A DNA stretch of 64,000 nt from an uncultured Prevotellaceae bacterium (GTDB lineage: Bacteria > Bacteroidota > Bacteroidia > Bacteroidales > Bacteroidaceae), in assembly GCA_947169115.1 (NCBI GenBank), contig CAMVOK010000010.1, forward strand, positions 7,091 through 71,090, given 5' to 3'. The translations under genes and the position numbers were made by a program. The notes under the pieces were generated by a model. It was not told the origin of the DNA. It saw only the letters and a list, made by a program, of their open reading frames with translations, and made no database searches. How positions within the stretch are numbered: position 1 is the first letter of the stretch; each line of letters opens with the position of its first letter. Shown piece by piece: positions 2,107-57,601 of this stretch.

Positions 2107-4794
2107 ATGAAAAAGTTTCTTCCCTTCTTGGCTATATTTTTCCTACTCAACGGCTGTACGCTTTCGATGGAGGATTGGGTGCTTCCCGAGGAGGAGCGTG
2201 GAAAAGACGAACCCTACACCGTGGAGAGCGAGTATGGCACTATCACCTACCAGTTTAACGATAACGTGCTTTACGTTACCGACCGCGTACAGGAAGACTA
2301 TATTGTGCGTGTGGAGCACGATAGCATTCTCTACTTCAATGGTAATATACCAGACAAGTGGCGGCCTTATGTGGGGATGAAACTGGCTACGGGTTGTTCC
2401 CACTTGCTGCCATACGGTCTGAATCACCGTGTGGTCAGCGTTGAGGACGTGGGCGGCATCCTCAAGGTCGTGGCCACCAAGGTATCGACCGACGAGGTGT
2501 ATAAGCACCTAAGTTATTGCATTGATGCCGACATCGTGGCTCCCGACCTTGCCGGAATGTCAGAAGAAGAACTGAAAGACTATGGCTACGAACTGACCAT
2601 CGACCCCGAAACGGGCGACACCCTCATCATGGACTGGAACAACTACGATGTAGATAAGGGACTCCGGCCAGCCAATGCCAAACGTAATTCGCTAAAGATG
2701 GTGACACGTGCTGAGACGAATGAGGAGAAATCGGAAGAGGGCGCCCCAGACGATGTAAATGATGGAACAAAAAGGTCGGAATTTCTGAATTTGTTTTTCG
2801 ACACGCGTAACATAGACAAATTCCTTGATGCGACCACCGCTGCCCATGAATTCAGGAATGGCCTTCTCGAAATAGCCAAGGCTCGTGTACAAGAAGCCAC
2901 TGCGGGTTCGGGGCATCTGATAAGCGGTGATCCTTACATCGCATTAGGAATAGAGAGCGTACATTATCAGAAGGCTCATGCAGAGGAAGATAAGGATAAA
3001 GGCTTTGAACTCAAATATACCGACTCGTGGACTGAGTGGACTATGAAGGGTGAAGTGGGCTATTGTGTGTCTGCCGATCCTGGATATAAGGATACTCCTG
3101 CGGATAAGAGCAAGATGGGTATGCCTTCGGGCAGTTTTTTGGGTTATATGAAAGATGCCATATCCAAGAAGGCTGTTCCTAACAAAAATATTGCCCAACC
3201 TTCCAAGGGGTGGAACAATTTACGGATTCGTGTCATTATCACGGCAACTCCCATACCCATTGCTTTCATTGCTTCAGCCACGCTCACTCCCACCGTGGAA
3301 CTGAATGGTTGCCTCTGTTTCTCCGCAACCTATACATCCGACAGGCGCCGCGTGGGTTATAGGGTGGAGAATAAGGATTCAGAGAAGGAGGACATAGACA
3401 TGGAAGTATCCAAAGGAAAGATAACTGATGCCTCCATTGTGGGTAAAGGTTCGCTGAAGGTGGGCATGGCATTCAGGGCTGCCGCCGGACTGGAATTTGC
3501 CGGCACACTGGGTGTCACCTGTGGTGCAAATGTGGAGGCATACGTAGAGGGAGAACTTTCGTGCGATATCGGTGGAGCCATTAAGGATGGTGGCGTGGGA
3601 TTGGATAATTGCGATGGAAACTTTAAGTTCTATAGCGACTTCTATGGTGACATACAGTTGCATGTGGCTCCGTTGGGAATCAGTTTATGGGATAAACAGA
3701 TAGCGAAGTTCTGGACAATACATCTCATCAACTGGAGCAAGAAATATGGACCTTCGATCTATTTCATTAATGAGAAAGTCTATACAGGTAAAGATTTCAG
3801 ATGGGACCTGGAGAATACAGATAGTATAGGCATTTCCGGCTATTATCAATTCAAGGACCTTGATGGAGCAAAGGCTCTGTTCAACGTGAAGAATTATTAT
3901 CCTGGCATGAAACTCTACTTTGGCCCGATAAGTGACAACAACTATGTCTATATGGTACCCACAGACATTATGAATAAGCCACTTAACAGCAGCGATTGGA
4001 AAAATGCCAAGGAGGGTGAAACCTATCATTATTATTGGAAGGGTTTGCTCAACAAACAGCAGAAAGAAGGCATGCCAATCACTGAGGCTCATCTTGTACC
4101 TGTATTGATGGGCTTATACAATGACGTAGACTATTTGTACCCTGGAACTCTTACACAGAGTAATATGAATTCAATGGGAAATATTCTTGCCGATGCCATA
4201 GAGGTGAAGGATAGAGAAATTTCCGTTGATTTGGGTGACCCTGTCATCACAACCGTCGAGGCTGGACAGATTTCCGGCCAACCCACATACGACTTTTCTG
4301 ATGATCATGAGCAAGGGGCTTACGTCAGTACCGGAGGTGACGAACATGGAGGTCAGTCAGTCATGGTTAAGAAAGAACTGCGCAGATACACCTTCTACAC
4401 CACCGTTAAGGTACAGGGAGGAACACAATTGAAGGAATGGGGGTTGAAGGTGTACATCTTCGGACCTGATGGTAAGAAGAGGCTCGGCCCTCGCCACAAA
4501 CTACGCGTCAACAAACTTCGCTCTGGAATCTACACCTTCATCTTTTCATTCGAAACCGACTGGGGGACAACTACAAATATAGACAAGGAAAATCAGCATC
4601 TCTATTTCCGCGTACTACCCTATTGGACCAACCCGCGTGCCTCTGGTGACGAAATCGAAGCAGAGGATGCAGCCTCACTCAAGAAATACCCCATCAACTG
4701 GGAAATGGAGGACACCAAGAGCGAGGAAATTCTTAACAAAGGCAACGCTTCCAAGTGGGGCACCATCGACCAAAAGAGCATTCATGATTTTTAA
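2107..4794 (+). CDS. Large lipoprotein of unknown function (895 aa)
   Basis: Lipoprotein signal MKKFLPFLAIFFLLNGC. A long uninterrupted ORF with no recognisable catalytic motif, and a Gly/Ala-rich beta-looking core (GSLKVGMAFRAAAGLEFAGTLGVTCGANVEAYVEGE). Confidence 0.55.
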   Translation: MKKFLPFLAIFFLLNGCTLSMEDWVLPEEERGKDEPYTVESEYGTITYQFNDNVLYVTDRVQEDYIVRVEHDSILYFNGNIPDKWRPYVGMKLATGCSHLLPYGLNHRVVSVEDVGGILKVVATKVSTDEVYKHLSYCIDADIVAPDLAGMSEEELKDYGYELTIDPETGDTLIMDWNNYDVDKGLRPANAKRNSLKMVTRAETNEEKSEEGAPDDVNDGTKRSEFLNLFFDTRNIDKFLDATTAAHEFRNGLLEIAKARVQEATAGSGHLISGDPYIALGIESVHYQKAHAEEDKDKGFELKYTDSWTEWTMKGEVGYCVSADPGYKDTPADKSKMGMPSGSFLGYMKDAISKKAVPNKNIAQPSKGWNNLRIRVIITATPIPIAFIASATLTPTVELNGCLCFSATYTSDRRRVGYRVENKDSEKEDIDMEVSKGKITDASIVGKGSLKVGMAFRAAAGLEFAGTLGVTCGANVEAYVEGELSCDIGGAIKDGGVGLDNCDGNFKFYSDFYGDIQLHVAPLGISLWDKQIAKFWTIHLINWSKKYGPSIYFINEKVYTGKDFRWDLENTDSIGISGYYQFKDLDGAKALFNVKNYYPGMKLYFGPISDNNYVYMVPTDIMNKPLNSSDWKNAKEGETYHYYWKGLLNKQQKEGMPITEAHLVPVLMGLYNDVDYLYPGTLTQSNMNSMGNILADAIEVKDREISVDLGDPVITTVEAGQISGQPTYDFSDDHEQGAYVSTGGDEHGGQSVMVKKELRRYTFYTTVKVQGGTQLKEWGLKVYIFGPDGKKRLGPRHKLRVNKLRSGIYTFIFSFETDWGTTTNIDKENQHLYFRVLPYWTNPRASGDEIEAEDAASLKKYPINWEMEDTKSEEILNKGNASKWGTIDQKSIHDF

Positions 4795-5833: not shown

Positions 5834-5866
5834 TCTCCTCCCCTTGCCTTCCCCGAGGGGAGGGTG
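5834..5866 (-). repeat. C-arm/G-arm hairpin element copy (intergenic)
   Basis: ctcctccccttgccttccccgaggggagggtg. Confidence 0.75.
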
Positions 5867-5893
5867 TGTATATGGACATAAAGATAGATAATC

Positions 5894-9855: not shown

Positions 9856-11154
9856 TTATTTTTGTATAGTGATGATGAACAGTTTATCGTTGTGCCTGAT
9901 TTTAGTAGGAAGCGGTATGCTGATGTGCCAACCTTTCCGACCTGTATCAACAGGCTGCAAATCATAGCGTATTTCTTCGACAGTGGCATAAAGGGCACCT
10001 GTGGTTGGACCAGTGACCAAGATTCGGTCGCCCACATGAAGTTCACATGCCTCTATCTTGAACTCTGCCACTTTTAGTTTAGAGTAATAACGAATACCCC
10101 GGCCACAATAGGTTTTCCGTTCTGTTGCCGACGAACCATGATTCTTGGTCCATTCGCCCAATAACTGACCTTGGTAATAACCATCCCAAAAACCACGGTT
10201 AAAGACACGTGCTAAGCGTTCGTTCCATTGTTGTTTGCGCTCTTCTGTGAAACTACCCTCCTGTACACTCTGGATGGCCTCCTTGTAACAACGGACTACG
10301 GTATCTACATAGTCGGCTCCTCGGGCTCTGCCTTCAATCTTGAATACACGTACACCAGCAGCCATCATTCTGTCGATGAAATCAATGGTTTTAAGGTCCT
10401 TGGGACTCATGATGTATTTGTTGTCAACTTGTAGCTCAGTTCCCGTTTCGGTATCATGCACGGTGTAGGAACGGCGACATAGTTGCATGCACTCACCACG
10501 ATTGGCCGAACGTCCCATGTTGTCGAGACTTAGATAACACTTGCCACTGACTGCCATACAGAGGGCACCATGACAGAACATCTCAATGCGTACCAGTTGG
10601 CCACTGGGACCTGTGATGTGTTGTTCCTCAATCTGCCTGTATATCTCGGCCACCTGTTCCATACGTAGTTCACGTGCCAAGACAACGACATCGGCAAAAT
10701 GGGCATAGAAACGCAGGGCCTCGATGTTGGAGATGTTGAGTTGAGTGGAGAGATGAACCTCCAGACCTATCTGTCGGGCATAAGTCATGGCTGCCACATC
10801 CGAAGCGATGACGGCAGATATCTGGGCTGCCTTGGCTGCATCCAGTATCTGTCGCATGAGTTCTATATCTTCGTCATATATAATAGTATTAACGGTCAGA
10901 TAACTTTTCACTCCAAAAACCTGGCATTCTCGGGCAATGTGGTGAAGGTCATCGATGGTGAATGCCGAGGCAGAGTGAGCTCGCATGTTTAATCGCTCAA
11001 TGCCGAAGTATATGCTGTCGGCACCGGCACGTAGGGCGGCAGCCAAAGACTCGGGGCTACCTACAGGAGCCATTATTTCATAGGCGCCCCCACCCCCTTT
11101 CCCCTCCCGAGGAAGGGGAGTAGTCACATTTGTATAATCGATATTATTTGTCAT
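9856..11154 (-). CDS. Peptidase U32 family protein (collagenase-like)
   Basis: YEIMAPVGSPESLAAALRAGADSIYFGIERLNMRA and MFCHGALCMAVSGKCYLS are U32 hallmarks. The first ~20 codons come from a repeat element (see findings). Confidence 0.85.
   Translation of the reverse strand: MTNNIDYTNVTTPLPREGKGGGGAYEIMAPVGSPESLAAALRAGADSIYFGIERLNMRAHSASAFTIDDLHHIARECQVFGVKSYLTVNTIIYDEDIELMRQILDAAKAAQISAVIASDVAAMTYARQIGLEVHLSTQLNISNIEALRFYAHFADVVVLARELRMEQVAEIYRQIEEQHITGPSGQLVRIEMFCHGALCMAVSGKCYLSLDNMGRSANRGECMQLCRRSYTVHDTETGTELQVDNKYIMSPKDLKTIDFIDRMMAAGVRVFKIEGRARGADYVDTVVRCYKEAIQSVQEGSFTEERKQQWNERLARVFNRGFWDGYYQGQLLGEWTKNHGSSATERKTYCGRGIRYYSKLKVAEFKIEACELHVGDRILVTGPTTGALYATVEEIRYDLQPVDTGRKGWHISIPLPTKIRHNDKLFIITIQK
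11085..11154 (-). repeat. Hairpin/G4 element copy with conserved left flank; forms the start codon and first ~22 codons of the U32 peptidase
   Basis: The minus strand reads atgacaaataatatcgattatacaaatgtgactactccccttcctcgggaggggaaagggggtgggggc. Confidence 0.8.
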
Positions 11155-11175
11155 CGTTTATTATTTTTTCGGTAT

Positions 11176-12210
11176 TTACGCCCTCCCCTCGGGGAGGGTT
11201 GGGATGGGGGTTTCGTCCATTATCTTGAACAGTTCTTCGACCGTTTCGGCGCGAAGCATCCGGATGCGGGTTTCGCGGAAGTTAGGAATTCCCTTGAATA
11301 GAGGGGAGGCGGCCAGATGACGACGGCTGTGCAAGATGCCGCGATACTCGCCGAGACGTTCTACGCTGGTCAGCACTTGCTGGCGTAGGACGTTGAGGCA
11401 CCATAGCCCCCCTTCGCTCCCCCCGAGGGGGGAAGAATCGCCTCCCCTCGGGGAGGTTGGGAGGTGGCTGAGGAGGGTTTTTATCTCCTTGAATATCCAA
11501 GGTCTTCCAAAAGTGGCACGACCGACCATTATGGCATCGACTCCGTAGCGTTCGAAGCACTCTTTGGCTCTTTCGGGAGTGGTGATATCGCCGTTGCCGA
11601 TAATGGGAATGTGGATGCGCGGATTGCGCTTTACCTCGCCGATGAGGGTCCAGTCGGCTTCGCCTGTGTACATTTGGCTGCGTGTACGACCATGGATGGT
11701 AAGGGCCTGAATGCCGCAGTCTTGCAGCTGCTCGGCAAGTTCGGTGATGATGAGGTGTTCCTGATCCCAGCCTAAACGAGTCTTTACGGTTACAGGTGTG
11801 TTGGGCACTGCATTTACCACGGCTCGTGTAATTTCCAGCATGAGGGGGATGTTTTGCAGCATTCCTGCTCCAGCCCCTTTCCCAGCTACTCGTTTTACGG
11901 GACAACCGAAGTTGATGTCCAGAATATCGGGATGAGCCTGTTCAACAACAATCTGTGCAGCATCACGCATGGCTTCAACGAAACGTCCATATATCTGTAT
12001 GGCAACAGGACGCTCCTCGTCGCATACCTGTAATTTCTCAATACTACGATTGACTCCTCGAACAAGTGCATCGCTCGACACAAACTCGGAATATACGAGA
12101 TCGGCTCCCATCTGTTTGCACAACAGGCGGAAACCGATGTCCGTCACATCCTCCATTGGGGCGAGGAAGACGGGATAAGGCGTATCAAAGTGAACGGGGC
12201 CGATGTTCAT
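11176..12210 (-). CDS. dusB: tRNA-dihydrouridine synthase (DusB-like) carrying repeat-derived insertions
   Basis: PVFLAPMEDVTDIGFRLLCKQMGADLVYSEFVSSDAL, DINFGCPVKRV and TIHGRTRSQMYTGEADW are Dus TIM-barrel motifs. Its ATG overlaps the upstream mod stop codon (ATGA). Confidence 0.85.
   Translation of the reverse strand: MNIGPVHFDTPYPVFLAPMEDVTDIGFRLLCKQMGADLVYSEFVSSDALVRGVNRSIEKLQVCDEERPVAIQIYGRFVEAMRDAAQIVVEQAHPDILDINFGCPVKRVAGKGAGAGMLQNIPLMLEITRAVVNAVPNTPVTVKTRLGWDQEHLIITELAEQLQDCGIQALTIHGRTRSQMYTGEADWTLIGEVKRNPRIHIPIIGNGDITTPERAKECFERYGVDAIMVGRATFGRPWIFKEIKTLLSHLPTSPRGGDSSPLGGSEGGLWCLNVLRQQVLTSVERLGEYRGILHSRRHLAASPLFKGIPNFRETRIRMLRAETVEELFKIMDETPIPTLPEGRA
11180..11210 (+). repeat. Hairpin/G4 element copy forming the last codons and stop of dusB
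   Basis: ccctcccctcggggagggttgggatggggg. Confidence 0.8.
11406..11466. repeat. Two head-to-head hairpin element copies in frame inside dusB
   Basis: gccccccttcgctccccccgaggggggaag + cgcctcccctcggggaggttgggaggtgg. Encodes SPRGGDSSPLGGSEGG. Confidence 0.8.
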
Positions 12211-14168: not shown

Positions 14169-14201
14169 TTTACACGTTGCCTTGTTTGTTTAGAATTTCT
14201 A

Positions 14202-14220
14202 AGGTGCAAAAATTGCACCT
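14202..14220 (-). other. 7-bp-stem hairpin in the ORF6N-mod intergenic gap
   Basis: aggtgca-aaaat-tgcacct. No evidence for its function. Confidence 0.3.
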
Positions 14221-14234
14221 CAAATATAGTACAC

Positions 14235-14855
14235 TCACTTATTGACAATAAACCCTATTGGATTTCTTTGTTTGTTAATCTCCCTTTGTGTTGACTCTGC
14301 TTGTAGTTGAGCGATTGCATCGTTGATATTTTCCAGTTGCCTTGCAATTATCTCTTGGTCATTGGCAACCATCTCATTGATATCGTTCTGGTCACGTAGT
14401 GTTTCATCCATATCGATACGCAATTGTTTGATTTCGGAATGAATCTGCTCTATCTGCAGTTGAGTGTCAGTCATTGCCAATAAGGCTTGCTGCATTTGGA
14501 AGAAGGCTCGCATGATATTGATGTTTACCTGAATGGCAATAGGAGTCCTGAGAAGTCCAGAGAGCATGGCTATGCCCTCCTGAGTGAACGCGTATGGAAG
14601 ATATTTGCTGTGCTTTCCCCGTCCATTCTCTATGGTGAAAAAATTGCACCTTAAAAAATCATACTCTTCTTTGGTCAGTTCGAACATGAAATCTTCTGGG
14701 AAACGTTCCTTGTTCATGCGGACAGCTCTTTTCAGATTCTTCGTCTCTATTCCATATAACATACTGAGATCGCTGTCTATCATTATCTTTCGACCTCGAA
14801 GTTCGTAAATATGTCCTTTAATGGACTCTGTACTTAGTATTACAGTATTATCCAT
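14235..14855 (-). CDS. ORF6N (KilA-N/Bro-N-like DNA-binding) domain protein with a C-terminal coiled coil
   Basis: IYELRGRKIMIDSDLSMLYGIETKNLKRAVRMNKERFPEDFMFELTKEE...GKHSKYLPYAFTQEGIAMLS matches the ORF6N family pattern. The C-terminus is heptad-like (QLQIEQIHSEIKQLRIDMDE...). Confidence 0.8.
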   Translation of the reverse strand: MDNTVILSTESIKGHIYELRGRKIMIDSDLSMLYGIETKNLKRAVRMNKERFPEDFMFELTKEEYDFLRCNFFTIENGRGKHSKYLPYAFTQEGIAMLSGLLRTPIAIQVNINIMRAFFQMQQALLAMTDTQLQIEQIHSEIKQLRIDMDETLRDQNDINEMVANDQEIIARQLENINDAIAQLQAESTQREINKQRNPIGFIVNK

Positions 14856-14875
14856 GTTACTTTCTCCTAATTATT

Positions 14876-17752: not shown

Positions 17753-18232
17753 TCATTTTGTGGAGAACGCCAATGCATACATTTTCATCTGCTTGAGCAT
17801 GGCCAAGAGTCCATTTGAACGGGTGGGAGAAAGATGTTCGCGCAGACCGATTTCCTCAATGAAATAAAGGTCGGCTGCAAGAATATCCTTGGGTGTTTGG
17901 TTGTTCAGCACACGTAGCAGGAGTGTGACAATACCTTTCACGATGAGAGCATCGCTCTCTGCCTGAAAATGGACACGCCCATCGATGAGGTCGGCCTGTA
18001 ACCATACGCGGCTTTGGCAACCATCGATGAGGTTCTGTTCCGTCTTATACTGTTCGGGCAAAGGCTCTTGGTCGCTACCCATCTCAATGAGCAGCTGGTA
18101 TCGGTCCATCCAGTCGTCAAGTTCTTGGAACTCTTCAATGATCTCGTCTTGCCTACGGCGTATTTCAGCCCCCTCCTGACCTCCCTGAGGGGAGGAAGTG
18201 ATTTCGTTTATATTATCGAGATTGTTAGTCAT
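17753..18232 (-). CDS. sufE: SufE-family cysteine desulfuration (sulfur acceptor) protein
   Basis: DRYQLLIEMG...LIDGCQSRVWL...DALIVKGIVTLLLRVLNNQTPKDIL...GLREHLSPTRSNGLLAMLKQMK includes the conserved Cys-loop GCQS. The N-terminal ~20 codons are repeat-derived. Confidence 0.85.
   Translation of the reverse strand: MTNNLDNINEITSSPQGGQEGAEIRRRQDEIIEEFQELDDWMDRYQLLIEMGSDQEPLPEQYKTEQNLIDGCQSRVWLQADLIDGRVHFQAESDALIVKGIVTLLLRVLNNQTPKDILAADLYFIEEIGLREHLSPTRSNGLLAMLKQMKMYALAFSTK
18168..18232 (-). repeat. Hairpin element copy with conserved left flank; forms the start codon and first ~21 codons of sufE
   Basis: The minus strand reads atgactaacaatctcgataatataaacgaaatcacttcctcccctcagggaggtcaggagggggctg. 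Confidence 0.8.
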
Positions 18233-18257
18233 ATTTATTTCATATATTTATATTAGT

Positions 18258-18295
18258 AACTACTCCCTCCCCTAGGGAGGGAATGGGGTAGGGGC
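18258..18295 (+). repeat. Hairpin/G4 element copy (intergenic)
   Basis: gtaactactccctcccctagggagggaatggggtaggggc. Confidence 0.8.
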
Positions 18296-18298
18296 TTT

Positions 18299-21762: not shown

Positions 21763-22659
21763 TTATTTTTCAATGCTCAGTAATTCTACTGTGAAAATAA
21801 GGGTAGAGAAGGGTGGGATTTTCCCACTTTCGCGGTCGCCGTATGCCAGTTCATGGGGGATGTAGAGTTCCCATTTGGAACCGACGGGCATCATAGTTAA
21901 TGCCTCTGTCCAGCCTTTGATGACTTGATTGCAGCCAAACGTGGCAGGTTCGCCTCGTTTGTATGAACTGTCAAATTCTGTGCCATCAATGAGGTGGCCT
22001 TCGTAGTTCACCTTGACGCGCTGTGTGGCTGTGGGTATTTCGCCTTCCCCTTTGGTAAGAATCTTATACTGCAAACCGCTGGGGGTGGTTACAACATCCT
22101 TCTTTTTACCATTCTCCTTCAAGAACTCCTCGCCGGCACGACGGGTGGCACCATATTTGCGTTCCATGCGTGCCTGATGGTAGTAGTCCATCTGTTTCTT
22201 TACCACTTGTTGGGCACTATCCATTGTGATGGGCAACAGGTCGTTTTCGCCAGATATTCCGGCACGGAAACCGGCCAAGAACACTTCGGGTTGCAGTATC
22301 TTTACAGAATCGTCAACCTGCTGTGCCACTTGAGGGAGCATTTGATTTTCTACCTGTGAACGAATGTCCATGCCCGCGAGACGTGCTTTCATGCGCTTGT
22401 CGGCTTCTGTCAGCGTGGCATTGTCATAGCCTTGCAGAAAGTCGGCAATATAGGCAGTATCGATGCCCATGCGCTGCACGAGATAGTCCTTCAGTCCCAT
22501 CGTGTGGGCTTTGCCAAAAAGGTAGCTGAAGTCGTGGGCGCTGATGGTATCTACCTTTTCAGCGACAGGTCCCACGACTTTCTTAGTCTTCTTCTTGTTA
22601 GAGGCAGCACTGGCTGACATACAGCACAGTACTGCCATAAGGAACAAAAGCTTTTTCAT
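21763..22659 (-). CDS. FKBP-type peptidyl-prolyl cis-trans isomerase (FkpA/Mip-like, secreted)
   Basis: Signal peptide MKKLLFLMAVLCCMSASA. FKBP core VKVNYEGHLIDGTEFDSSYKRGEPATFGCNQVIKGWTEAL...GSKWELYIPHELAYG. Confidence 0.9.
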   Translation of the reverse strand: MKKLLFLMAVLCCMSASAASNKKKTKKVVGPVAEKVDTISAHDFSYLFGKAHTMGLKDYLVQRMGIDTAYIADFLQGYDNATLTEADKRMKARLAGMDIRSQVENQMLPQVAQQVDDSVKILQPEVFLAGFRAGISGENDLLPITMDSAQQVVKKQMDYYHQARMERKYGATRRAGEEFLKENGKKKDVVTTPSGLQYKILTKGEGEIPTATQRVKVNYEGHLIDGTEFDSSYKRGEPATFGCNQVIKGWTEALTMMPVGSKWELYIPHELAYGDRESGKIPPFSTLIFTVELLSIEK

Positions 22660-27430: not shown

Positions 27431-28078
27431 ATGAAAGGTCTTCGGTTGTTTGCCCTGCTGTTTGCAATTCCGCAGTTGTTTCTCAATGCTCAGACCTCCG
27501 TCATAGACGAATGGGAGATAGAAGCAGAGCATAGTGCCACACACTTACAATTCCGACAAGACACTATTGAAATCTGGACACCGGCTGGCCTCACCTTATG
27601 GCGACGCCAGCCGCTTTCCGTTCCTTTTCTCCTGGAGTACGAGGCCATGGTGGTGCTTCGGGATTCGACCGACCGCCTTAGCGACCTCAACTGTTTCTGG
27701 CTTGCTACCGACCCTTCTGCGGCCGAGGGGAGTGTCTTTGCTCGTATGAACGAGCGCAATGGCGTATTTTCACGGGCTGCCACACTTCAGCTTTATTATA
27801 TGGGTTATGGAGGCAACTCGAACACTACCACCCGTTTCCGCCGCTATCACGGTCTGCCTCAACCCCCATTGTTGCAGGAATATACCGACTCTGCTCACCT
27901 GCTCATCCCCAACCAGTGGTACCACATCCGCATCGAGGCTACGCGCGAGCACACGCGTTATTATATAAATGAAGAACTACTGATTGATTATGCTGACCCC
28001 GAACCTCTCCTCCGTGGTTGGTTCGGATTCCGCACGACATGGAGTCATTGCCTCTTACGTGGTTTTCGGGTTCATTAG
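27431..28078 (+). CDS. Secreted protein, possibly a concanavalin-A-like lectin/glucanase fold (DUF6250-like)
   Basis: Signal MKGLRLFALLFAIPQLFLNAQ. LNCFWLATDP...LQLYYMGYGGNSNTTTRFRRY...WYHIRIE...GWFGFRTTW resembles ConA-like DUF proteins. The family assignment comes from memory only. Confidence 0.4.
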   Translation: MKGLRLFALLFAIPQLFLNAQTSVIDEWEIEAEHSATHLQFRQDTIEIWTPAGLTLWRRQPLSVPFLLEYEAMVVLRDSTDRLSDLNCFWLATDPSAAEGSVFARMNERNGVFSRAATLQLYYMGYGGNSNTTTRFRRYHGLPQPPLLQEYTDSAHLLIPNQWYHIRIEATREHTRYYINEELLIDYADPEPLLRGWFGFRTTWSHCLLRGFRVH

Positions 28079-28102
28079 TTATTGATTGAGGCAACCAATC
28101 TT

Positions 28103-28263
28103 CAATGGTTGCTACAACCATCATGGATTGATTGCTACAACCATCATGGATTGATTGCTGCAACCATCATAGATTGATTGCTACAACCATCATGGATTGA
28201 TTGCTGCAACCATCATAGATTGATTGCTGCAACCAACATTATTTGATTGCAGCAATCATTATG
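28103..28263. repeat. Tandem array of a 23-bp unit (about 6.5 copies) with a 46-bp higher-order alternation
   Basis: Units gattgattgctacaaccatcatg (28126, 28172) alternate with gattgattgctgcaaccatcata (28149, 28195). Degenerate copies flank them. There are no spacers. Confidence 0.9.
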
Positions 28264-33549: not shown

Positions 33550-35712
33550 ATGAAACGGATTTCGCTTTCGTTATTGTTGCTTGTTGGTGCAGTTAACTTT
33601 CAGCTTTCTACTTTCTTGCCCCACTTCGTTCTGCAAGCGTGGCCTACGGCTGCCGATTATTGTTTTCAACTTGGTGTAGCCTATGCCCAGTTTCATGAAC
33701 CCGTGCAGTTCAGTGTTAAACAGAACAAGCTTTCAGAATCTGAAATCGAGGTGGTATTTACGGGAAAGGTAGATGCCGGATGGCATGTCTATAGTACTGA
33801 TATCCCCGATGGCGGACCAACAAAGGCCGAGCTGACGCTGGAGAAGCAACAAGGTGTGAAGCCCAAAGGCGCATTGCGAGCTACGGGCAAGGTACACCGC
33901 GAGATGGACGACATGTTTGACATGGAACTTTCCTATATGGAGGGAACAGCCTCGTTTAGCCAGAAGTTCACGGTGACGGAGCCTACCTACGAGGTGGCTG
34001 GCTATCTGACATACGGGGCTTGCAATGACGAAAACTGCATTCCTCCCACGAATGTCGATTTCAGTTTCAAAGGAGAGGTAAGCCTCACCCCCGACCCCTC
34101 TCTTGCAGAGAAGGGAGCAGATACGTCTGAAAATAAGACGGATGCCGAAATTGACGAGGCGGAAAGTGATTCTGCAAATGTATCTACCCCCCTCCCTACA
34201 GGGGAGGGGCTTGGGGAGGGTCTTCATCTATGGGTACCCGTCATTGACGAACTGAAAGCCTTCTCCGATGGAACTTCCTCGTCTCAAGGGGGAAGCCAAA
34301 GCGGGGCTTCCGCTCTACTTTGGATATTTCTGATGGGGCTTCTGGGTGGGTTTGCAGCCCTGCTTACCCCCTGCGTGTGGCCAATCATTCCCATGACCGT
34401 TAGTTTCTTCCTGAAGCGAGGGAGCAAGGAGCAGGGGGCAAGGAACAAGGGCGTTCGGGATGCCATGTTATATGGCCTAAGCATCATTGTCATTTACATG
34501 GCTCTTGGTTTGCTCGTTACCCTGCTGTTTGGTGCAAGTGCGTTGAATGCGCTCAGTACCAATGCCATCTTTAACATTTTCTTCTGTCTTCTGTTATTGC
34601 TGTTTGCGGCTTCCTTTCTGGGCGGCTTCGAAATAACGTTGCCCAGTAGTTGGTCAAATGCCGTGGATAGTAAGGCCACAAGTACCACTGGTCTGCTCTC
34701 GATCTTCCTCATGGCTTTCACCTTGTCGTTGGTCAGTTTCTCCTGCACAGGACCCATCATTGGTTTCCTGTTGGTAGAGGTAGCCTCGACGGGTAATATT
34801 GTCGGCCCTGCCATTGGCATGTTCGGCTTTGCTCTTGCCTTGGCCTTGCCCTTCACCCTGTTCGCCCTCTTCCCCTCGTGGTTGAAGGCTGCTCCCAAAA
34901 GCGGAAACTGGATGAATTGCATTAAGGTGACATTGGGATTCCTGGAACTGGCATTCTCCTTGAAGTTCCTTTCTGTAGCCGATTTGGCATACGGTTGGCA
35001 TATTTTGGACCGCGAAGTGTTCCTTTCCCTGTGGATAATCATCTTCGCCCTGCTCGGTGCCTACTTCATTGGCTGGATACGCTTCCCTCATGATGAGGAT
35101 GAATACGACGAGATGGGGGAGGTCATACAGCATCCACGTACTACTGTCACCCGTTTCTTCTTGGCTTTAGTGTCGTTTGCCTTTGCCCTTTACATGGTGC
35201 CTGGGCTATGGGGAGCCCCCTGTAAGGCTGTCAGTGCTTTTGCTCCACCCATGTCAACTCAGGATTTCAACCTCTCCAAGAGTGAGTCCCTGCACTTCGA
35301 GGATTACGAAGAGGGTATGGCATACGCCCGTGAGCACCACATGCCAGTGTTCCTCGACTTTACGGGGTATGGTTGTGTAAACTGTCGTAAGATGGAGGCT
35401 GCTGTATGGACAAACTCCGAGGTGCAGCAATTGATGGGGGATAACTTTGTGCTCATCTCTCTGTTTGTGGATGAAAAAACTCCTCTGAAGGAACCGAAAA
35501 TTGTTGATGAAAACGGAGAAAAACGTAAGCTGCGTACTGTGGGGGACCAATGGAGCTATTTGCAGCGTTATAAGTTTGGTGCCAATGCCCAGCCTTTCTA
35601 TGTCCTGGTAGATAATGAGGGCCATCCCTTGGCTCCCTCGTATAGTTATGATGAGGATGTGCAGGCATTCAAGCAGTTCCTCGAAACGGGTATCAGGAAC
35701 TACAAGAAATAG
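33550..35712 (+). CDS. dsbD: Thiol:disulfide interchange protein DsbD-like (N-terminal domain, CcdA-type membrane core, C-terminal thioredoxin)
   Basis: Membrane-core motifs LLTPCVWPIIPMT and SFSCTGPI. C-terminal thioredoxin CxxC DFTGYGCVNCRKME. The linker carries a repeat-derived insertion (STPLPTGEGLGEGL). Confidence 0.85.
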   Translation: MKRISLSLLLLVGAVNFQLSTFLPHFVLQAWPTAADYCFQLGVAYAQFHEPVQFSVKQNKLSESEIEVVFTGKVDAGWHVYSTDIPDGGPTKAELTLEKQQGVKPKGALRATGKVHREMDDMFDMELSYMEGTASFSQKFTVTEPTYEVAGYLTYGACNDENCIPPTNVDFSFKGEVSLTPDPSLAEKGADTSENKTDAEIDEAESDSANVSTPLPTGEGLGEGLHLWVPVIDELKAFSDGTSSSQGGSQSGASALLWIFLMGLLGGFAALLTPCVWPIIPMTVSFFLKRGSKEQGARNKGVRDAMLYGLSIIVIYMALGLLVTLLFGASALNALSTNAIFNIFFCLLLLLFAASFLGGFEITLPSSWSNAVDSKATSTTGLLSIFLMAFTLSLVSFSCTGPIIGFLLVEVASTGNIVGPAIGMFGFALALALPFTLFALFPSWLKAAPKSGNWMNCIKVTLGFLELAFSLKFLSVADLAYGWHILDREVFLSLWIIIFALLGAYFIGWIRFPHDEDEYDEMGEVIQHPRTTVTRFFLALVSFAFALYMVPGLWGAPCKAVSAFAPPMSTQDFNLSKSESLHFEDYEEGMAYAREHHMPVFLDFTGYGCVNCRKMEAAVWTNSEVQQLMGDNFVLISLFVDEKTPLKEPKIVDENGEKRKLRTVGDQWSYLQRYKFGANAQPFYVLVDNEGHPLAPSYSYDEDVQAFKQFLETGIRNYKK
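34174..34220 (+). repeat. Hairpin/G4 element copy in frame in the dsbD linker
   Basis: gcaaatgtatctacccccctccctacaggggaggggcttggggaggg. Confidence 0.8.
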
Positions 35713-35717
35713 GGAAC

Positions 35718-35760
35718 TCCATCCCCTTTGACCCCTCCCGAGGGAGGGGAGTGGTTACTA
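35718..35760 (-). repeat. Hairpin element copy (intergenic)
   Basis: The minus strand reads tagtaaccactcccctccctcgggaggggtcaaaggggatggag. Confidence 0.8.
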
Positions 35761-35836
35761 ACGCAAATATAAAACGAAAAATATTAATAACATAAATAAC
35801 AATTGTAAAAAAGCCTTACTCTTCAATCGTATATAC

Positions 35837-35868
35837 GCCCTCCCCCTGGGGAGGGGATGGGGAGGGGG
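35837..35868 (+). repeat. Hairpin/G4 element copy (intergenic)
   Basis: cgccctccccctggggaggggatggggaggggg. Confidence 0.8.
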
Positions 35869-35887
35869 TTGTAAATTTTATTAAAAG

Positions 35888-43432: not shown

Positions 43433-45805
43433 ATGAGATACAGATTCATCATTTTGGTGGCTGCCGTGTGTGGCCTCATGTCTGTGACGGACATAAAGGC
43501 CCAGGTGACGATAAGCCCGGAGGACGAAGCCTTCTTTAAATCACTCTTCCCTCAAAAGGAAGGAGATAATTGGGCCGACACGTACTATCAGGACAAATTC
43601 AAAAACCGACTTTCGTTCCATGCGAACGTAGTGGACTGGGTGCTTACCATGCCCAGTGCGGGTATTGAGTTCGACCTGAATAACAAGTTTGTCTTCGACG
43701 AGCACAAGAAGCGTACATGGAAGACCAATCGTACATTGTTGCTCTTTGGTAAGTACAATGGTCACACCAAGCATACAGTGGCTCCGAAGTTTGTCTTCGA
43801 CGTGGCTGCTGTTCGTTTGGAGTTTCGCAAGTATTGGCGTACGGGTAAAGTGGGATTGAATAATAACTACCATGAGGACTATCGTACGATGGACCTGTAC
43901 AAGCCCGATACGTTGTGGCGCAAGGTGAAGACGACCGATGAGTTTGGTGATACAATAATCAAGAGGGAGGCTTACTATAGCAGTAAAGACTCGGCAAGAA
44001 TAAACGAGGGCAAGGAGTTTGAGGGCGATCCAAATCGTGGACGTTTCTCAAATATGTATGAGAATGCCCGTCGTTTGGCCAGTACCCGCACGATAGAGAA
44101 TGCCCGCAACTGGCGTGCTTACTATCTGGGTGCATTTGCCGGTTGGGACAAGTATTCGTGGTGCCTGAGTAAGAAAGGTGAACAGGGAACTTTACTCTCC
44201 GTGGGTGCAACCTTCGGTTGGAGTGTACCCCTGTTGGCTACACACGACAAGGATTATGGTCTTGACCTTGATTTAGGTCTGAATGTCGGTGTTCCTGCTG
44301 CCAAGTATGAGGGATATAAGTATGTAGATGTGGACAACAATGCATACTATGTACATGACGGTCGCTCGAAGAACGATGGCTGGACCATCAATCCCAAGTA
44401 CATCCTGCGCGACATACACGTGGCACTCGTTTATCGTTTCCGTTCCATCAGCCGTAAGGTCAGCTTGGCTATTGTTGACGATTACCAGAAGCGCATCGAT
44501 GCCTGGAATGAGCGTCAGCGTAAGATGTCGGAAGAGAAACGTCTGATAGAAGAGGAGTGGCAGCGTAGGTTGGAAGAGCAGAAACGTACTGACAAGCACA
44601 ATACCGACTCTCTGTCATGGTACAACTGGCAGCGTAAGGAATATCTGGTGGCCATGAAGGAACTCTATCCCGATCGTCCATGGCAGACTCGCCAAGACAG
44701 TATCGACTATATCCGACTTGTGCTGGGTATCGACACGGTTGACTATGTACGTGTGAAGGCTCGTGAGGATCGTCTGAAGAAGATGCAGGAAGATATGTTG
44801 CGTGACTCACTGGATTGGATTAAGCGTGTGGCCGAACGTGACAGTCTGGGCAAGGCTAAGATTGAACAACGCAAGCAGAAGCGTGCTGAGCGTGATAGTT
44901 TGGACAAGCGCAATGCCTTCATGAAGGATAGTATTGCACACGTAAAGGATAGTCTCGATCAGATTCGCAGGGATAGCATCGGTGCTGTACGCGATAGTGC
45001 TCAGAAGGTCAAGGATGCCGCACGTGATAGCATCCAGGCCATTAAGAATGCTCAACGCGATAGTTTGCAGAAGATTCGTGATGATGAGCGTCGGGCACGC
45101 TTGGCAGAAAAGAAGGCTTTGCAGGACGAACGTGATGCCGAAGAGGCTAAGCGCAAGGCCGAGCAGAAGTTGCGTCAGGATTCTATTGATGCTGAACGTC
45201 GCAAACAGCGTATCGAACAGGAAATGGAACGTAAACAACGTGAGTTTGACGCTGGCGTGAACAAGGATAAGCGCAAGGAAGAGGCTGAGGCTCGGAAGCA
45301 AGCTCGTGAGCGGGATAAGGAAGAAGAGGCTGAGGCTCGTCGCATTGAACAGGAAGCTCAGAAGCGTGCTCGTGAGAACGAGAAACGTATGAGGGCTCAG
45401 GAGGCAGAGAACCGCAAGCAGCGTGAGGCTGAGGAGCAGGAGGAACTGAAAGCAGAGGCTGAAAAGAAGAAAGCCGAAGCTGATGCCATGAAGGAAAAGA
45501 AAGCTCAGGAAGCAGAGGCAAAGAAGGCTGAGGCTGATGCCAAAAAGCAGGCTGACAAGGAAGCCAAGGATGCTGAGCGAGCTAAGAAGGAAGCTGAGAA
45601 GGCCGAGGCTGATGCCAAGAAGCAGGCTGACAAGGAAGCCAAGGATGCTGAACGGGCTAAGAGGGAAGCTGAGAAGGCCGAGGCTGATGCCAAGAAGCAA
45701 GCTGAACGTGAGGCCAAAGAGGCAGCAAAACGTGCAGAGCAAGAGCGAAAGGCTGCTGAGAAAGAGGCTGCTAAAGCTGCCAAAGAGGCCAAAACCGAAG
45801 AATAA
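43433..45805 (+). CDS. DUF3575-like outer-membrane beta-barrel fused to a ~450-aa highly charged E/K/R/A helical domain (envelope operon gene 3)
   Basis: Signal MRYRFIILVAAVCGLMSVTDIKAQ. Barrel cues LSFHANVVDWVLTMPSAGIEFDL and VRLEFRKYWR. From aa ~345 the sequence is a continuous charged helix with RDS[LI] repeats and 25-aa EADAKKQADKEAKDAERAKKEAEKA repeats. Confidence 0.6.
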   Translation: MRYRFIILVAAVCGLMSVTDIKAQVTISPEDEAFFKSLFPQKEGDNWADTYYQDKFKNRLSFHANVVDWVLTMPSAGIEFDLNNKFVFDEHKKRTWKTNRTLLLFGKYNGHTKHTVAPKFVFDVAAVRLEFRKYWRTGKVGLNNNYHEDYRTMDLYKPDTLWRKVKTTDEFGDTIIKREAYYSSKDSARINEGKEFEGDPNRGRFSNMYENARRLASTRTIENARNWRAYYLGAFAGWDKYSWCLSKKGEQGTLLSVGATFGWSVPLLATHDKDYGLDLDLGLNVGVPAAKYEGYKYVDVDNNAYYVHDGRSKNDGWTINPKYILRDIHVALVYRFRSISRKVSLAIVDDYQKRIDAWNERQRKMSEEKRLIEEEWQRRLEEQKRTDKHNTDSLSWYNWQRKEYLVAMKELYPDRPWQTRQDSIDYIRLVLGIDTVDYVRVKAREDRLKKMQEDMLRDSLDWIKRVAERDSLGKAKIEQRKQKRAERDSLDKRNAFMKDSIAHVKDSLDQIRRDSIGAVRDSAQKVKDAARDSIQAIKNAQRDSLQKIRDDERRARLAEKKALQDERDAEEAKRKAEQKLRQDSIDAERRKQRIEQEMERKQREFDAGVNKDKRKEEAEARKQARERDKEEEAEARRIEQEAQKRARENEKRMRAQEAENRKQREAEEQEELKAEAEKKKAEADAMKEKKAQEAEAKKAEADAKKQADKEAKDAERAKKEAEKAEADAKKQADKEAKDAERAKREAEKAEADAKKQAEREAKEAAKRAEQERKAAEKEAAKAAKEAKTEE
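45530..45730 (+). repeat. 75-bp tandem repeat (about 2.7 copies) inside the charged-helix coding region
   Basis: gaggctgatgccaa starts at 45530, 45605 and 45680. Units are near-identical and encode 25 aa each. Confidence 0.9.
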
Positions 45806-54953: not shown

Positions 54954-55010
54954 AAATAGTAAATAGTAAACAGTAAATGGTAAATAGTAAATTGTTAAAA
55001 AGTAAATTAG
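54954..55010. repeat. 7-bp tandem word array containing the YfhO-like start codon
   Basis: aaatagt aaatagt aaacagt aaatggt aaatagt aaattgt taaaaagt aaattag. Confidence 0.9.
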
Positions 55011-57601
55011 TTGATGTCTTGATGGTGGCCATGTTTGCCCTTATCAGCTTGGCTTATTTCTGGAACCCCATCATGGAAGGAATGGTTCTGACGGGTACCG
55101 ACCACAATGCTGCTGTGGGCAGTAATGTGGAATTGAGCGAATATCGTAAGACGCACAACGGTGAACGTACCCGCTGGACAAACTCCCTGTTTTCGGGTAT
55201 GCCCACCTATCAGATGTCACCCTCTTACAACAGCACCGACACGTTAGCAACATTGGAGAAGATTTATCAGCTGGGTCTTCCAGAAGTGGCCGGCTATGTG
55301 TTTATGATGCTTCTGGGTTTCTACATTCTACTTCGTGCCTTTGATTTTCGCGCATGGATGGCTGCCCTTGGTGCCATCTTGTGGGCGTTTTCCAGTTACT
55401 ATTTCATAATCATTGCCGCCGGACATATCTGGAAACTACTGACGCTTTGTTTCATTCCGCCCACAATTGCGGGCATGGTGCTCTGTTATCGTGGCAAGTA
55501 TTTGTGGGGTATTGCTGTCACTGGTATCTTTACGGGTTTGCAAGTGTTCTCGAACCACATCCAGATGTCATATTACTTCCTGCCCGTCATGGGGCTGATG
55601 GCGATAGCGTTCTTAGCCCCCTCCCGACCTCCCCGAAGGGAGGAGGAAGCATCCCCCTCGGGGGATAAGAGGTGGGCTGTTCGTTGGCTCAAAGGCTCAC
55701 TTGCTGCCTTTATCGGCGGATTGCTTGGAGTGGGCATTAATATCTCCAATCTCTACCACACTTACGAGTACAGTAAGGAGACGATGCGTGGCAAGAGCGA
55801 ACTGACGCAGAAGACGAAGGACGCTGCCGACCAGACGGGCAGTGGTCTGGAACGCTCGTACATTACAGCTTGGAGTTATGGTATAGGTGAGACGTGGACG
55901 TTGCTTGTACCCAACACAAAGGGTGGAGCCTCCGTTCCTCTTAGTCAGAACGAAACGGCCATGGCGAAAGCCAAGAATGAGTACCGTCCTCTCTACCAAC
56001 AACTTGGCCAGTATTGGGGAGAACAGCCAGGAACGAGTGGCCCCGTGTATGTGGGTGCTTTTGTGTTTTTCCTTTTCATTTTGGGACTATTTATTGTAAA
56101 AGGTTCGATGAAATGGGCTCTTTTGATTGCCACCATTTTGAGCATCCTGCTCTCGTGGGGTAAGAACTTCATGCCTTTTACCGACTTTTTCCTCGACTAT
56201 GTGCCCATGTACGATAAGTTCCGTACCGTGGCCTCCATTCTTGTCATAGCCGAGTTTACCATCCCTTTGTTGGCGATGCTCGCCTTGAAGACGTTGGTTA
56301 AGGATGAAGGGTTAAGGATGAAGGATTATTCGAAGCCCATGTTTATCAGCCTCGGGCTGACCGCAGGCGTGTGCTTCCTTTTCTGGCTGATGCCAGACTT
56401 TTTCTTTGGCAGTTATATCTCCACGAGCGAGATGCAAGCCTTGAAGGGATTGGAGGAATATGGTTGGCCTGTAGGAGATGTCATGCAGAATCTTAGTGAT
56501 ATGCGTCGCGCCATGTTCACGGCCGATGCCATGCGCTCGTTCATCATTATTCTCATAGGTTTTGGCATCCTCATGCTCTATAGGGCCAAGAAACTGAAAG
56601 AGGTAACTATGGTAGCATGTCTCTCGCTGCTTTGTCTCATCGATATGTGGTCGGTGAACAAACGTTATCTGAGCGATAGCGACTTCGTTCGTCCGCGTCC
56701 TAACACCGAGACATTCCCACTGACTGAGGTTGACCAACGCATCCTGCAAGATCCAGACACATATTATCGTGTGCTAAACCTTACTGTCAGCACCTTTAAC
56801 GACAATACCACTTCATATTATCACAAGTCGATTGGTGGCTACCATGCTGCCAAGTTGCGCCGCTATCAGGAACTCATAGAGGAACATATCCAAAGTGAGA
56901 TGCAGACCGCATGGTCTTTGGCTCCCGAGATGGAGAATGCCGATTCTCTGCTGCCTGTGCTGAACATGCTGAACATGAAGTATATGATTCTGCCTTTGAA
57001 GGATAATGGTAAAATTGAAGTGGAAAATCCGTCGGCCAACGGTAATGCGTGGTTCGTCAACGAGGTTCGTTATGTGGAGGATGCTGATGATGAATTGGCC
57101 GGATTGCATGGGCTCGACACGAAGCATGTGGCGGTAGCCGATAAAAAGATGGAATCCATCTTAGGAGCCACAGCCCCCCTCTCTACCTCCGTCGCTGCGC
57201 TCCCCAACGCTAACGCCCGTCCTTGCGTTGCCCCCGAGGGGGAAGATTCTATCAAGAGCACCTCCCCTCGGGGAGGTCGGGAGGGGGCTGCCGTGTTGAC
57301 TAGTTATGAAGCCAACGAACTGCAATACGACGTGGAGAGTCGCGACGGCGGTGTACTCGTATTCAGCGAGATTTATTATCCGGGTTGGACTTGCACCGTC
57401 GATGGTCAGTCCGTAGAGATTGGCCGTGTCAATTATGTGCTTCGTGCCATTCACATTGATGGCGGAAGGCACAAGGTTGTTCTCACCTTCAAGCCCCGTT
57501 CTGAGCGCATAACAGAAACAATAGCATATTCTGCTCTTGGCCTTCTTGCGTTGCTCTTCTTAGGATTGCTGATAAGGCTATTTGTGAAGCGAAAGAACTA
57601 A
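54977..57601 (+). CDS. YfhO-family polytopic membrane protein (putative glycosyl-carrier/glycosyltransferase)
   Basis: 874 aa with many TM segments, an N-terminal periplasmic loop and a C-terminal single TM. The architecture resembles YfhO-like proteins. It contains two repeat-derived insertions and a repeat-derived N-terminus. Confidence 0.65.
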   Translation: MVNSKLLKSKLVDVLMVAMFALISLAYFWNPIMEGMVLTGTDHNAAVGSNVELSEYRKTHNGERTRWTNSLFSGMPTYQMSPSYNSTDTLATLEKIYQLGLPEVAGYVFMMLLGFYILLRAFDFRAWMAALGAILWAFSSYYFIIIAAGHIWKLLTLCFIPPTIAGMVLCYRGKYLWGIAVTGIFTGLQVFSNHIQMSYYFLPVMGLMAIAFLAPSRPPRREEEASPSGDKRWAVRWLKGSLAAFIGGLLGVGINISNLYHTYEYSKETMRGKSELTQKTKDAADQTGSGLERSYITAWSYGIGETWTLLVPNTKGGASVPLSQNETAMAKAKNEYRPLYQQLGQYWGEQPGTSGPVYVGAFVFFLFILGLFIVKGSMKWALLIATILSILLSWGKNFMPFTDFFLDYVPMYDKFRTVASILVIAEFTIPLLAMLALKTLVKDEGLRMKDYSKPMFISLGLTAGVCFLFWLMPDFFFGSYISTSEMQALKGLEEYGWPVGDVMQNLSDMRRAMFTADAMRSFIIILIGFGILMLYRAKKLKEVTMVACLSLLCLIDMWSVNKRYLSDSDFVRPRPNTETFPLTEVDQRILQDPDTYYRVLNLTVSTFNDNTTSYYHKSIGGYHAAKLRRYQELIEEHIQSEMQTAWSLAPEMENADSLLPVLNMLNMKYMILPLKDNGKIEVENPSANGNAWFVNEVRYVEDADDELAGLHGLDTKHVAVADKKMESILGATAPLSTSVAALPNANARPCVAPEGEDSIKSTSPRGGREGAAVLTSYEANELQYDVESRDGGVLVFSEIYYPGWTCTVDGQSVEIGRVNYVLRAIHIDGGRHKVVLTFKPRSERITETIAYSALGLLALLFLGLLIRLFVKRKN
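55616..55672. repeat. Two head-to-head hairpin element copies in frame inside the YfhO-like gene
   Basis: gccccctcccgacctccccgaagggaggagg + catccccctcgggggataagaggtgggc. Encodes PSRPPRREEEASPSGDKRW. Confidence 0.8.
57172..57287. repeat. Composite ~116-bp hairpin-element insertion in frame inside the YfhO-like gene
   Basis: Ends with cacctcccctcggggaggtcgggagggggctg and begins with the inverted G-tail gcccccctctctacctcc. Encodes APLSTSVAALPNANARPCVAPEGEDSIKSTSPRGGREGA. Confidence 0.7.

Follow-up and report, generated by a model that had tools for sequence, protein, structure and literature searches.

A composite inverted repeat at the starts of a U32-family gene and sufE in an uncultured Prevotellaceae bacterium

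Two unrelated genes share a 5′ segment

The stretch of DNA analyzed here (the window; 64,000 nucleotides (nt), positions 7,091 to 71,090 of contig CAMVOK010000010.1, assembly GCA_947169115.1) comes from an uncultured rumen Prevotellaceae bacterium, and carries on its minus strand a U32-family gene (open reading frame (ORF) 9856..11154; PF01136, residues 98-330), which starts MTNNIDYTNVTTPLPREGKGGGGAYEIMAPVGS, and sufE (ORF 17753..18232; PF02657, residues 32-151), which starts MTNNLDNINEITSSPQGGQEGAEIRRRQDEIIEEF. We compared the window with 80 related loci, designated below by L numbers, from metagenome-assembled genomes (MAGs) of rumen and gut Prevotellaceae (the records say Bacteroidaceae) and from Paraprevotella, and the gene order M28 peptidase, sufE, dusB, U32 is common to related loci. 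In the window, a restriction-modification island (12207-17746) lies between sufE and dusB, with genes for an N6/N4 DNA methylase, for a protein with an ORF6N domain and for a restriction subunit of the ResIII helicase type. Most of the relatives are without this island; L001 has a sufE-dusB gap of similar size, and in L111, from the same species as the window, the island is followed by a nitroreductase-like gene and a phage-type integrase, and not by sufE.

A first-pass annotation of this DNA had quoted the 5′ sequences and peptides of the U32 gene and sufE, both correctly, and had put their identity at about 75% over the first ~65 nt. The similarity is real, and the figure is a little lower: an ungapped alignment from the ATG has 26 identities in 36 nt (72%), and the full quoted segments agree in 47 of their 71 alignment columns (66%). 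Shuffles that kept the composition and a fixed ATG reached the score of this pair in only 0.02% of cases (p about 2e-4), and when the 43 long ORFs of the window were compared all against all over their first 36 nt (903 pairs; mean 12.7, sd 2.8), the U32/sufE pair came out as the maximum (26). The similarity extends upstream past both ATGs into a second, inverted hairpin module, and the two predicted N-terminal extensions include the peptides MTNNIDYTNVTTPLPR and MTNNLDNINEITSSPQGGQEGAEIR.

One could attribute this likeness to chance, low complexity or an assembly artefact, given that both segments are AT-rich and then run into a common repeat, and that one degenerate search pattern had been built from the two sequences themselves. 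We consider this extremely improbable, in view of the shuffle test, the rank of the pair among the 903, and two further observations: the sufE copy of a related contig (L087) and that of the window U32 gene agree base for base over 17 nt starting with the ATG (17 of 17), and the latter was recovered, with two base differences, in four independent assemblies of the same species, whose agreement excludes an assembly artefact. The runner-up among gene-start pairs in the window, with 23 of 36 bases, joins ORF 2107..4794 (+) and ORF 21763..22659 (−), over segments 2107-2142 and 22624-22659.

The shared segment is half of a composite repeat

We observe that the shared segment is the right half of a composite repeat of ~125 nt, resembling MITEs (miniature transposable elements with inverted repeats) and REPINs, in which two inverted modules of ~40 nt surround a variable AT-rich core, and that at both U32 and sufE the core holds the ATG. 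The earlier description of a single hairpin and G-rich tail downstream of each start covers half of the unit, which is an inverted doublet of two modules with the ATG in its variable core, outside the conserved portion of the repeat. A GC hairpin of 6-9 bp forms the middle of each module, between a C- or G-rich tail and an inner motif like GTAnnTAC; on the minus strand, the left module runs from a C-rich tail through the hairpin to the inner motif (A/C)GTAnnTAC, and the right module from the inner motif GTnAnnACT through the hairpin to a G-rich tail.

The U32 composite (11085-11210, minus strand) fills the whole dusB-U32 junction. Its left module (11172..11210) contains a C-rich tail, the hairpin CCCTCCCC/GGGGAGGG (11181-11198) and the inner motif CGTAAATAC, and alignment of orthologue C-termini indicates that this module provides the C-terminal end of DusB (ETPIPTLPEGRA) together with its TAA stop codon (11176-11178). 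The AT-rich core (11128..11171) holds the ATG, with A at −3, and codons 1-9. The right module (11085..11127) contains the inner motif GTGACTACT, a hairpin (11100-11119) and a G-rich tail, is read as VTTPLPREGKGGGGA, and has, on the sense strand, a canonical G-quadruplex motif made up of its 3′ arm and tail. The shared segment (11085..11154) thus comprises U32 codons 1-24: it opens with the core ATG (11152-11154), closes with the G-rich tail, and has no stop codon in the gene frame, with 3 and 2 stops in the other frames. The first conserved U32 codons, Y25-E26-I27-M28, follow at 11071..11082; [YF]E[IV]M is conserved in all orthologues, and its Met is the sole candidate here for a start further down.

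The sufE composite (18167-18298, minus strand) likewise fills the whole M28 peptidase-sufE junction. Its left module (18256..18298), at a site that is empty in L116, starts right after the stop codon of the M28 peptidase gene (18299-18301); the AT-rich core (18206..18255) holds the ATG (18230-18232), again with A at −3; and the right module (18167..18205), with its inner motif, a hairpin (18180-18195) and the tail GGAGGGGGCT, is read as EITSSPQGGQEGA.

We identified 15 modules in the 64 kb of the window, with four doublets, and 77 distinct modules in the window and the related loci follow a common consensus, in which GTATCTACT precedes a C-rich and then a G-rich arm with a loop between them, and TT-GGGGGAGGG-TC/CT comes next. 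At the orthologous U32 site the stem sequences vary between loci yet stay complementary, a result to be read together with the demand of our module finder for arm complementarity. Terminal inverted repeats, i.e., the ~40-nt modules, are present at both ends of the four window composites and of many in related loci, and in the minimum-free-energy fold the two modules of a doublet pair over long range into one long hairpin. A scan of the whole window against Rfam found no matching family.

The modules contain almost no A and are nearly free of stop codons, and since this near-absence of A leaves few stops, they are tolerated inside reading frames: 10 of the 15 window modules lie inside long ORFs, as do 72 of the 114 hairpins detected (ORFs of ≥100 amino acids (aa)). 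The encoded peptide changes with the reading frame, for example PLPREGKGGGG, SSPQGGQEG and SPSGKVKRGG. In addition, we counted 8 canonical G-quadruplex motifs in the window (four tracts, G3+ N1-7), where shuffles predict 1.1, and 6 of the 8 are in modules, where the motif is made up of the G-rich hairpin arm and the tail (11087-11108, 11191-11210, 18275-18294, 34201-34220, 35848-35868 and 54881-54899). The motif at U32 is on the sense strand and covers codons 17-23.

The ancestral start codons of sufE and U32 are gone

Alignment with orthologues, for both U32 and SufE, places the beginning of conservation at the ancestral starts, upstream of the internal Met codons. More than 100 SufE orthologues (82-92% identity, 138-140 aa) begin M[TS]INE[IR]QDEII, and in the DNA of about 70 species we find ATGACNATCAACGAAATACAAGAC a few bases past the stop of the M28 peptidase gene. 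The window sufE instead reads ...GGAGGGGGCT GAA ATA CGC CGT AGG CAA GAC at the old start position, and the ancestral ATG is therefore gone. Residue 8 of E. coli SufE aligns with residue 29 of the window protein, which puts the old Met at A22, whose codon is the final one in the G-rich tail; position 7 of the NCBIfam SufE profile aligns with window residue 28. The six codons GCT GAA ATA CGC CGT AGG (AEIRRR; 18152..18169, minus strand) thus stand in the place of ancestral codons 1-6, ATG ACN ATC AAC GAA ATA (MTINEI), a placement that was made by codon-for-codon comparison with L088 and L089, by the empty site in L116 and by the E. coli SufE alignment.

The sufE composite is present in the window, L087, L088 and L089, and also in L091, where the gene neighbourhood is different; the sufE junction itself is filled in the window, L087 and L088, and empty in L116 and about 70 other loci. 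The empty site in L116 reads TAAAAAGCCTT-ATG AGC ATC AAC CAA ATA CAA GAC, and L088 reads GGGGCC GTC ATC AAC CAA CGA CAA GAC after its right module. Ancestral codons 3-5 hence persist downstream of the right module in L088, which shows that the ATG of the core and the old sufE ATG are different codons, and the post-module stretch of the window sufE is equal in length to that of L088 and L089. Between the core ATG and M42 the window sufE contains no in-frame ATG, GTG or TTG, and a start at M42 would cost about 20 conserved residues.

U32 orthologues begin MN[FY]EIMAPVGS, or MTRKDFEIMAPVGS in a sister clade, and in the window the ancestral ATG is gone here too. Ten loci (L003, L007, L009, L010, L012, L014, L087, L115, L116 and the window) are without the ancestral ATG AAY; in these, [YFL]E[IV]M directly follows the G-rich tail and a core ATG opens the frame. 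In L017, L019 and L022-L025 a doublet lies ~27 nt upstream of a retained U32 start, MTRKDF. The dusB-U32 junction is filled in at least 8 loci, and is empty in L002, L004, L013 and others. The residues F/Y-E-I/V before the internal Met of U32 are conserved from Paraprevotella to the window's clade, and the E-I/V codons are kept through synonymous or conservative changes (GAA ATA, GAA ATC, GAG GTC) in all composite-bearing loci; U32 translation therefore most likely begins upstream of this Met. The U32 extensions of the window and L087 have 27 codons each with the hairpin read in different frames, i.e., compensating indels have occurred. No match for the window U32 protein was found among solved structures.

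A third gene has the same architecture: dusB in L012 reads MQPTDVITLSPRGENGEGV-SIGNIHF, against the ancestral MNIGNIHF. The first-pass annotation took the 5′ ends of sufE and U32 to have been remodeled by a repeat, and this is borne out, with both ancestral ATGs gone and composites filling both junctions.

Translation most likely begins within the repeat core

Based on comparison with related loci, the starts of sufE and U32 most likely lie in the repeat core. We examined the frame from the core ATG to the conserved body of the protein at 14 composite-bearing starts in several species (U32 at 8 loci, sufE at 5 and dusB in L012), and found it without a stop in the gene frame at all 14, with 1-5 stops always present in each of the other two frames. 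The stretch of core that follows the ATG has many potential stops, and it too is open only in the gene frame at 14 of 14. Between the window and L087, the sufE extension (81 nt) has 7 changed codons, of which 4 are synonymous against 23% expected (p = 0.054), and has no indels, against a 7-nt length difference in the core upstream of the ATG. Initiation in Bacteroidetes works without Shine-Dalgarno pairing and is tuned by structure and by A at −3 (PMC6847099). Both core ATGs have A at −3 and sit in the least structured part of their region, with a mean probability of being unpaired of 0.61 (U32) and 0.68 (sufE), against 0.34 and 0.39 at the old start positions; this choice of starts by low structure and A-rich context in Bacteroidota would favor the core ATGs.

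The first-pass annotation had left room for true starts further downstream, the shared segment being just an untranslated leader. On this reading U32 would start at the Met of MAPVGS, translation of SufE would begin either at M42 or, close to its old start, at a non-AUG codon, and the open frames would be incidental. Many database U32 entries are indeed called at MAPVGS (406 aa), and the G/C-rich modules are nearly stop-free by composition. The 406-aa entries were considered as evidence for a downstream start and proved uninformative, since their MAPVGS starts reflect the choice of the gene caller and their DNA also has an in-frame ATG, 16 codons upstream. The composition of the modules does not extend to the AT-rich core, whose frame after the ATG is open solely for the gene, and the lean towards synonymous substitutions and the lack of indels downstream of the sufE ATG point the same way. 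Together with the conservation of F/Y-E-I/V upstream of the U32 Met, and with a sufE that has no canonical start before M42, this makes starts downstream of the repeat very unlikely for either gene.

Two neighboring loci share one core

In the other doublets the cores are unrelated; they measure 22-150 nt, and some have nested elements. Judged by similarity, the cores of the window U32 and sufE composites are homologous to each other, and the ATG-bearing core is, on the same comparison, not a conserved part of the family and is confined to these two neighboring loci. The idea that the repeat brought in a ready-made translation start hence holds insofar as both starts most likely lie in the core, and does not hold as a general property of the family. 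Other genes with the same N-terminal peptide did not emerge: the two N-terminal peptides, concatenated, gave no scoring match among 5.8 billion protein clusters, with 5 candidates that share words. A scan of Joint Genome Institute (JGI) metagenome contigs with ATGACNAAYAATMTCGAYNATA returned 17 matches, none of them beside a hairpin module, and these were set aside as chance matches; the collection seems to be without this species.

The window U32 core is nearest to the sufE core of L087 (z = 5.8-6.6), and less near to its own orthologues in L087, L115 and L116 (z = 1.2-4.0), with the part upstream of the ATG resembling the orthologue. The U32 and sufE doublets have the same orientation, and would be about 1.5 kb apart if the restriction-modification island were removed. 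The shared core probably arose by copying or gene conversion between the neighboring doublets, in one direction or the other.

The core of the dusB-U32 composite is also found reverse-complemented between species (L017, L023 and L025 versus L022 and L024), which suggests either that recombination between the inverted modules flipped it or that insertions took place independently in the two orientations. In L023 and L025, further palindromic elements are nested in the composite.

A model for start replacement and its main alternative

In the model that we favor, composites replaced the tight junctions of the conserved M28 peptidase-sufE-dusB-U32 row; the right module abuts the first conserved codons of sufE and U32, and the original ATG was lost. 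The frame now runs from the core ATG through the right module into the old protein body, and a start at this ATG would add an extension of 21-24 residues, to which the core would contribute an N/T/I/D-rich part and the hairpin with its tail a P...G-rich one. A GC hairpin against the old ATG would disfavor the old start, and selection would fix an ATG further upstream, where the core is A-rich and unstructured and A stands at −3. One core would have been copied or gene-converted onto the other. The U32 ATG may have come with the repeat, or may be the gene's own start, trapped between two modules. Taken as a whole, with composites replacing junctions, starts in the core and cores copied between two loci, we regard this account as the probable one, held with some reserve.

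This reserve reflects a number of points that weigh against our interpretation. Translation from the core ATGs is a prediction, and the exact start of U32 is uncertain, since its internal Met (M28) is conserved and an in-frame GTG at codon 10 is another candidate start. The 14 open frames are not 14 independent trials, as lineages share ancestry; L087-L091, L115 and L116 were retrieved through ORF calls that take the longest ORF and are thus biased to open frames, which leaves as unbiased cases only 7 U32 loci (the window and species-representative loci). The gap in accessibility between the new and the old start positions is modest. Mobility of the composite as a unit would follow only from the contrast of filled with empty sites; no transposase was identified, although no search aimed at one was made, a clean insertion boundary was not found at the copies inspected, and no consistent target-site duplication was found at the sufE, U32 and 35717-35869 copies, with a possible, weak GAAAT at sufE.

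Some of the evidence also fits a different history, in which the ATGs are native starts, solo modules were inserted in frame downstream of them (after codon 2 in U32 and codon 6 in sufE), other modules arrived independently upstream, the core is native leader together with the genes' first codons, and the N-terminal likeness reflects AT-rich codon usage and a short gene-conversion patch. The ancestral U32 begins ATG AAY (MN) and most composite-bearing U32 genes start ATG AAT AAC; the window sufE has ATAAACGAAAT ahead of the right module and GAAATA beyond it, which together look like the ancestral ATCAACGAAATA, and ATA AAC GAA ATC (INEI) upstream of the right module is like the ancestral ATC AAC GAA ATA. 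Solo modules are common, also inside genes, and cores that are very different between composites, some of them nested, fit modules as the mobile unit. Against native starts, L088 and L089 keep ancestral sufE codons 3-5 (ATC AAC CAA) downstream of the module, with the ATG upstream in the core, and the post-module stretch of the window sufE matches theirs in length. The INEI match (10/12) would be expected about 0.3 times by chance, by our own estimate and not by computation; the similarity between the cores spans AAYAATMTCGATWATA, which is absent from both ancestral genes; and native starts would need three extra in-frame indels in sufE (15 nt, the module with a duplication, and 9 nt) as well as a ~40-nt insertion in U32. 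We therefore think native starts unlikely. A specific version, in which the sufE ATG is ancestral with a solo module after codon 6, a GAAAT duplication and a 9-nt insertion encoding RRR, was kept only as part of this alternative, and is contradicted by L088, L089 and L116.

Going beyond replacement of the junctions, the inverted doublet could be imagined as a portable initiation cassette for the Shine-Dalgarno-blind Bacteroidota, presenting an A-rich, unstructured AUG in its loop, displacing native starts at tight operon junctions, homogenized by gene conversion, and with its hairpin and G-quadruplex-capable tail as a shared point of translational control. This wider proposal is speculative, and we consider it improbable as it stands.

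Other composites, modules and repeats in the window

Two further composites are present in the window. The one at 35717..35869 is intergenic, between a gene encoding a DsbD-like protein and one encoding an M16-like peptidase, and has an unrelated core with no usable ATG; the M16-like peptidase gene retains its own start at 35888. The other (34080..34223, plus strand) lies in frame within the gene encoding the DsbD-like protein (ORF 33550..35712), in the linker between the DsbD_N and DsbD_TM domains, where it adds about 48 residues ending ...NVSTPLPTGEGLGEGL.

Our module scan also located solo modules. Two lie in frame in dusB (11405..11470, minus strand), encoding PTSPRGGDSSPLGGSEGGL in a linker region, and two more (55613..55680, plus strand) in an ORF encoding a YfhO-like membrane protein (54977..57601), which contains a further one at 57261-57291; those at 5835-5872 and 54881-54915 are intergenic. 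In DusB, the linker that joins the catalytic barrel to the C-terminal domain is a hot spot of insertion, with unrelated inserts of 10-40 residues in other species; the comparison of the DusB linker and C-terminus includes L001, L002, L007-L009 and L011.

Repeats of other kinds are also present. Many intergenic spacers of the clade contain species-specific tandem arrays with units of 7-8 nt (CATAAGAC, CCTTAAAG, TGAATTGTGAATTA, GTTAAGG and TAAATAG), found upstream of sufE in L001, L003-L005, L007, L008 and L010-L012, upstream of U32 in L002, L004, L008, L011, L013, L040 and L041, and in the window at 54950-54995, 58454-58513 and 60602-60633. Some of these arrays run directly into start codons, and the ancestral U32 start lies inside a TGAATTA array. 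About 9 tandem copies of a 23-nt unit (ATTGATTGCTRCAACCATCATRG) occupy 28058-28287 in the window, downstream of ORF 27431..28078, and ORF 43433..45805 contains 75-nt in-frame tandem repeats (45275-45739) in a segment rich in Glu, Ala and Lys.

Significance

Rumen and gut Prevotellaceae are known mostly from MAGs, in which starts are set by software, and a dense, stop-free repeat that overwrites gene junctions would have a systematic effect on start calls, on N- and C-termini and on linker lengths. If the core ATGs are used, housekeeping genes (those for SufE, a U32-family enzyme and DusB) have survived the loss of their native starts by means of inserted DNA. Selfish DNA would then, if this is true, drive a turnover of start codons in a phylum whose starts are selected without Shine-Dalgarno pairing. 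The likeness of the two cores within one genome offers a small, testable case of concerted evolution between neighboring repeats.

Comparison with known repeats

In its anatomy, the element resembles REPINs, which Bertels and Rainey reportedly described in 2011 as inverted doublets of GC-rich palindromes. Like REP, BIME and REPIN sequences, the window family consists of GC-rich imperfect palindromes of 20-40 nt in inverted pairs with a short spacer, able to form one long hairpin. Its spacers (22-150 nt) are longer than those of REPINs and very variable, and whereas REPs are extragenic by definition (PMC3184786, an overview of REPs), 72 of its 114 hairpins are in ORFs.

The closest parallel in outcome is REP2 of Neisseria (Parkhill 2000; Morelle 2003; Delihas 2011), an intergenic repeat of 120-150 bp with stem-loops, whose ATG is fused to the downstream frame (PMC3184786). 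REP2 and the window composites both lie directly upstream of genes, and in both unrelated genes share a repeat-borne start, with a repeat ATG fused in frame to the downstream gene at sufE and U32 in the window and at dusB in L012. REP2, unlike the window family, has no terminal inverted repeats, carries a promoter and a ribosome-binding site, and provides one start cassette in about 25 copies; the window family conserves its inverted modules, and the ATG is in a variable core shared by two loci only. No Bacteroidetes-type promoter motif (TAnnTTTG/TTTG) was seen by eye in the two cores, for which no dedicated scan was made, and sufE and U32 are probably co-transcribed with their upstream neighbors.

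Insertion into reading frames is, in turn, reminiscent of the Rickettsia palindromic elements (RPE; Ogata 2000), which are found in frame inside unrelated genes, where they add peptide segments in tolerant regions (PMC10969869, PMC3184786); in-frame palindromic repeats are also known among BOX, ERIC and BRE elements (PMC3184786, PMC10969869). The modules of the window family are similarly in frame in the DusB linker and C-terminus, the DsbD linker, the YfhO-like ORF and the N-termini of SufE and U32. This likeness is one of architecture. RPEs are single units of about 100-150 bp with a conserved peptide, in contrast to modules of 30-45 nt, or doublets, with a frame-dependent peptide. The hosts differ too, the RPE host having a reduced intracellular genome and the window host being a free-living gut anaerobe.

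Correia/NEMIS, ERIC, BOX, RUP and BRE are small non-autonomous repeats with inverted ends, located at gene junctions and co-transcribed, that sometimes extend or interrupt frames (PMC3184786). The fusions reported for them are mostly C-terminal or internal. Our literature search found no description of such a repeat family in Prevotella or Prevotellaceae, and to our knowledge replacement of native starts that look essential in several adjacent genes of one conserved row is not a described feature of MITE-like repeats of this kind.

The remodeling of gene ends by repeats is thus already known in other bacteria, i.e., from Neisseria REP2 and Rickettsia RPE. The window family lacks defining features of two of these known classes, namely the extragenic location of REPs and the one cassette in many genes of REP2, and the element described here combines a REPIN-like anatomy and an RPE-like tolerance within genes with a REP2-like outcome at two or three gene starts.

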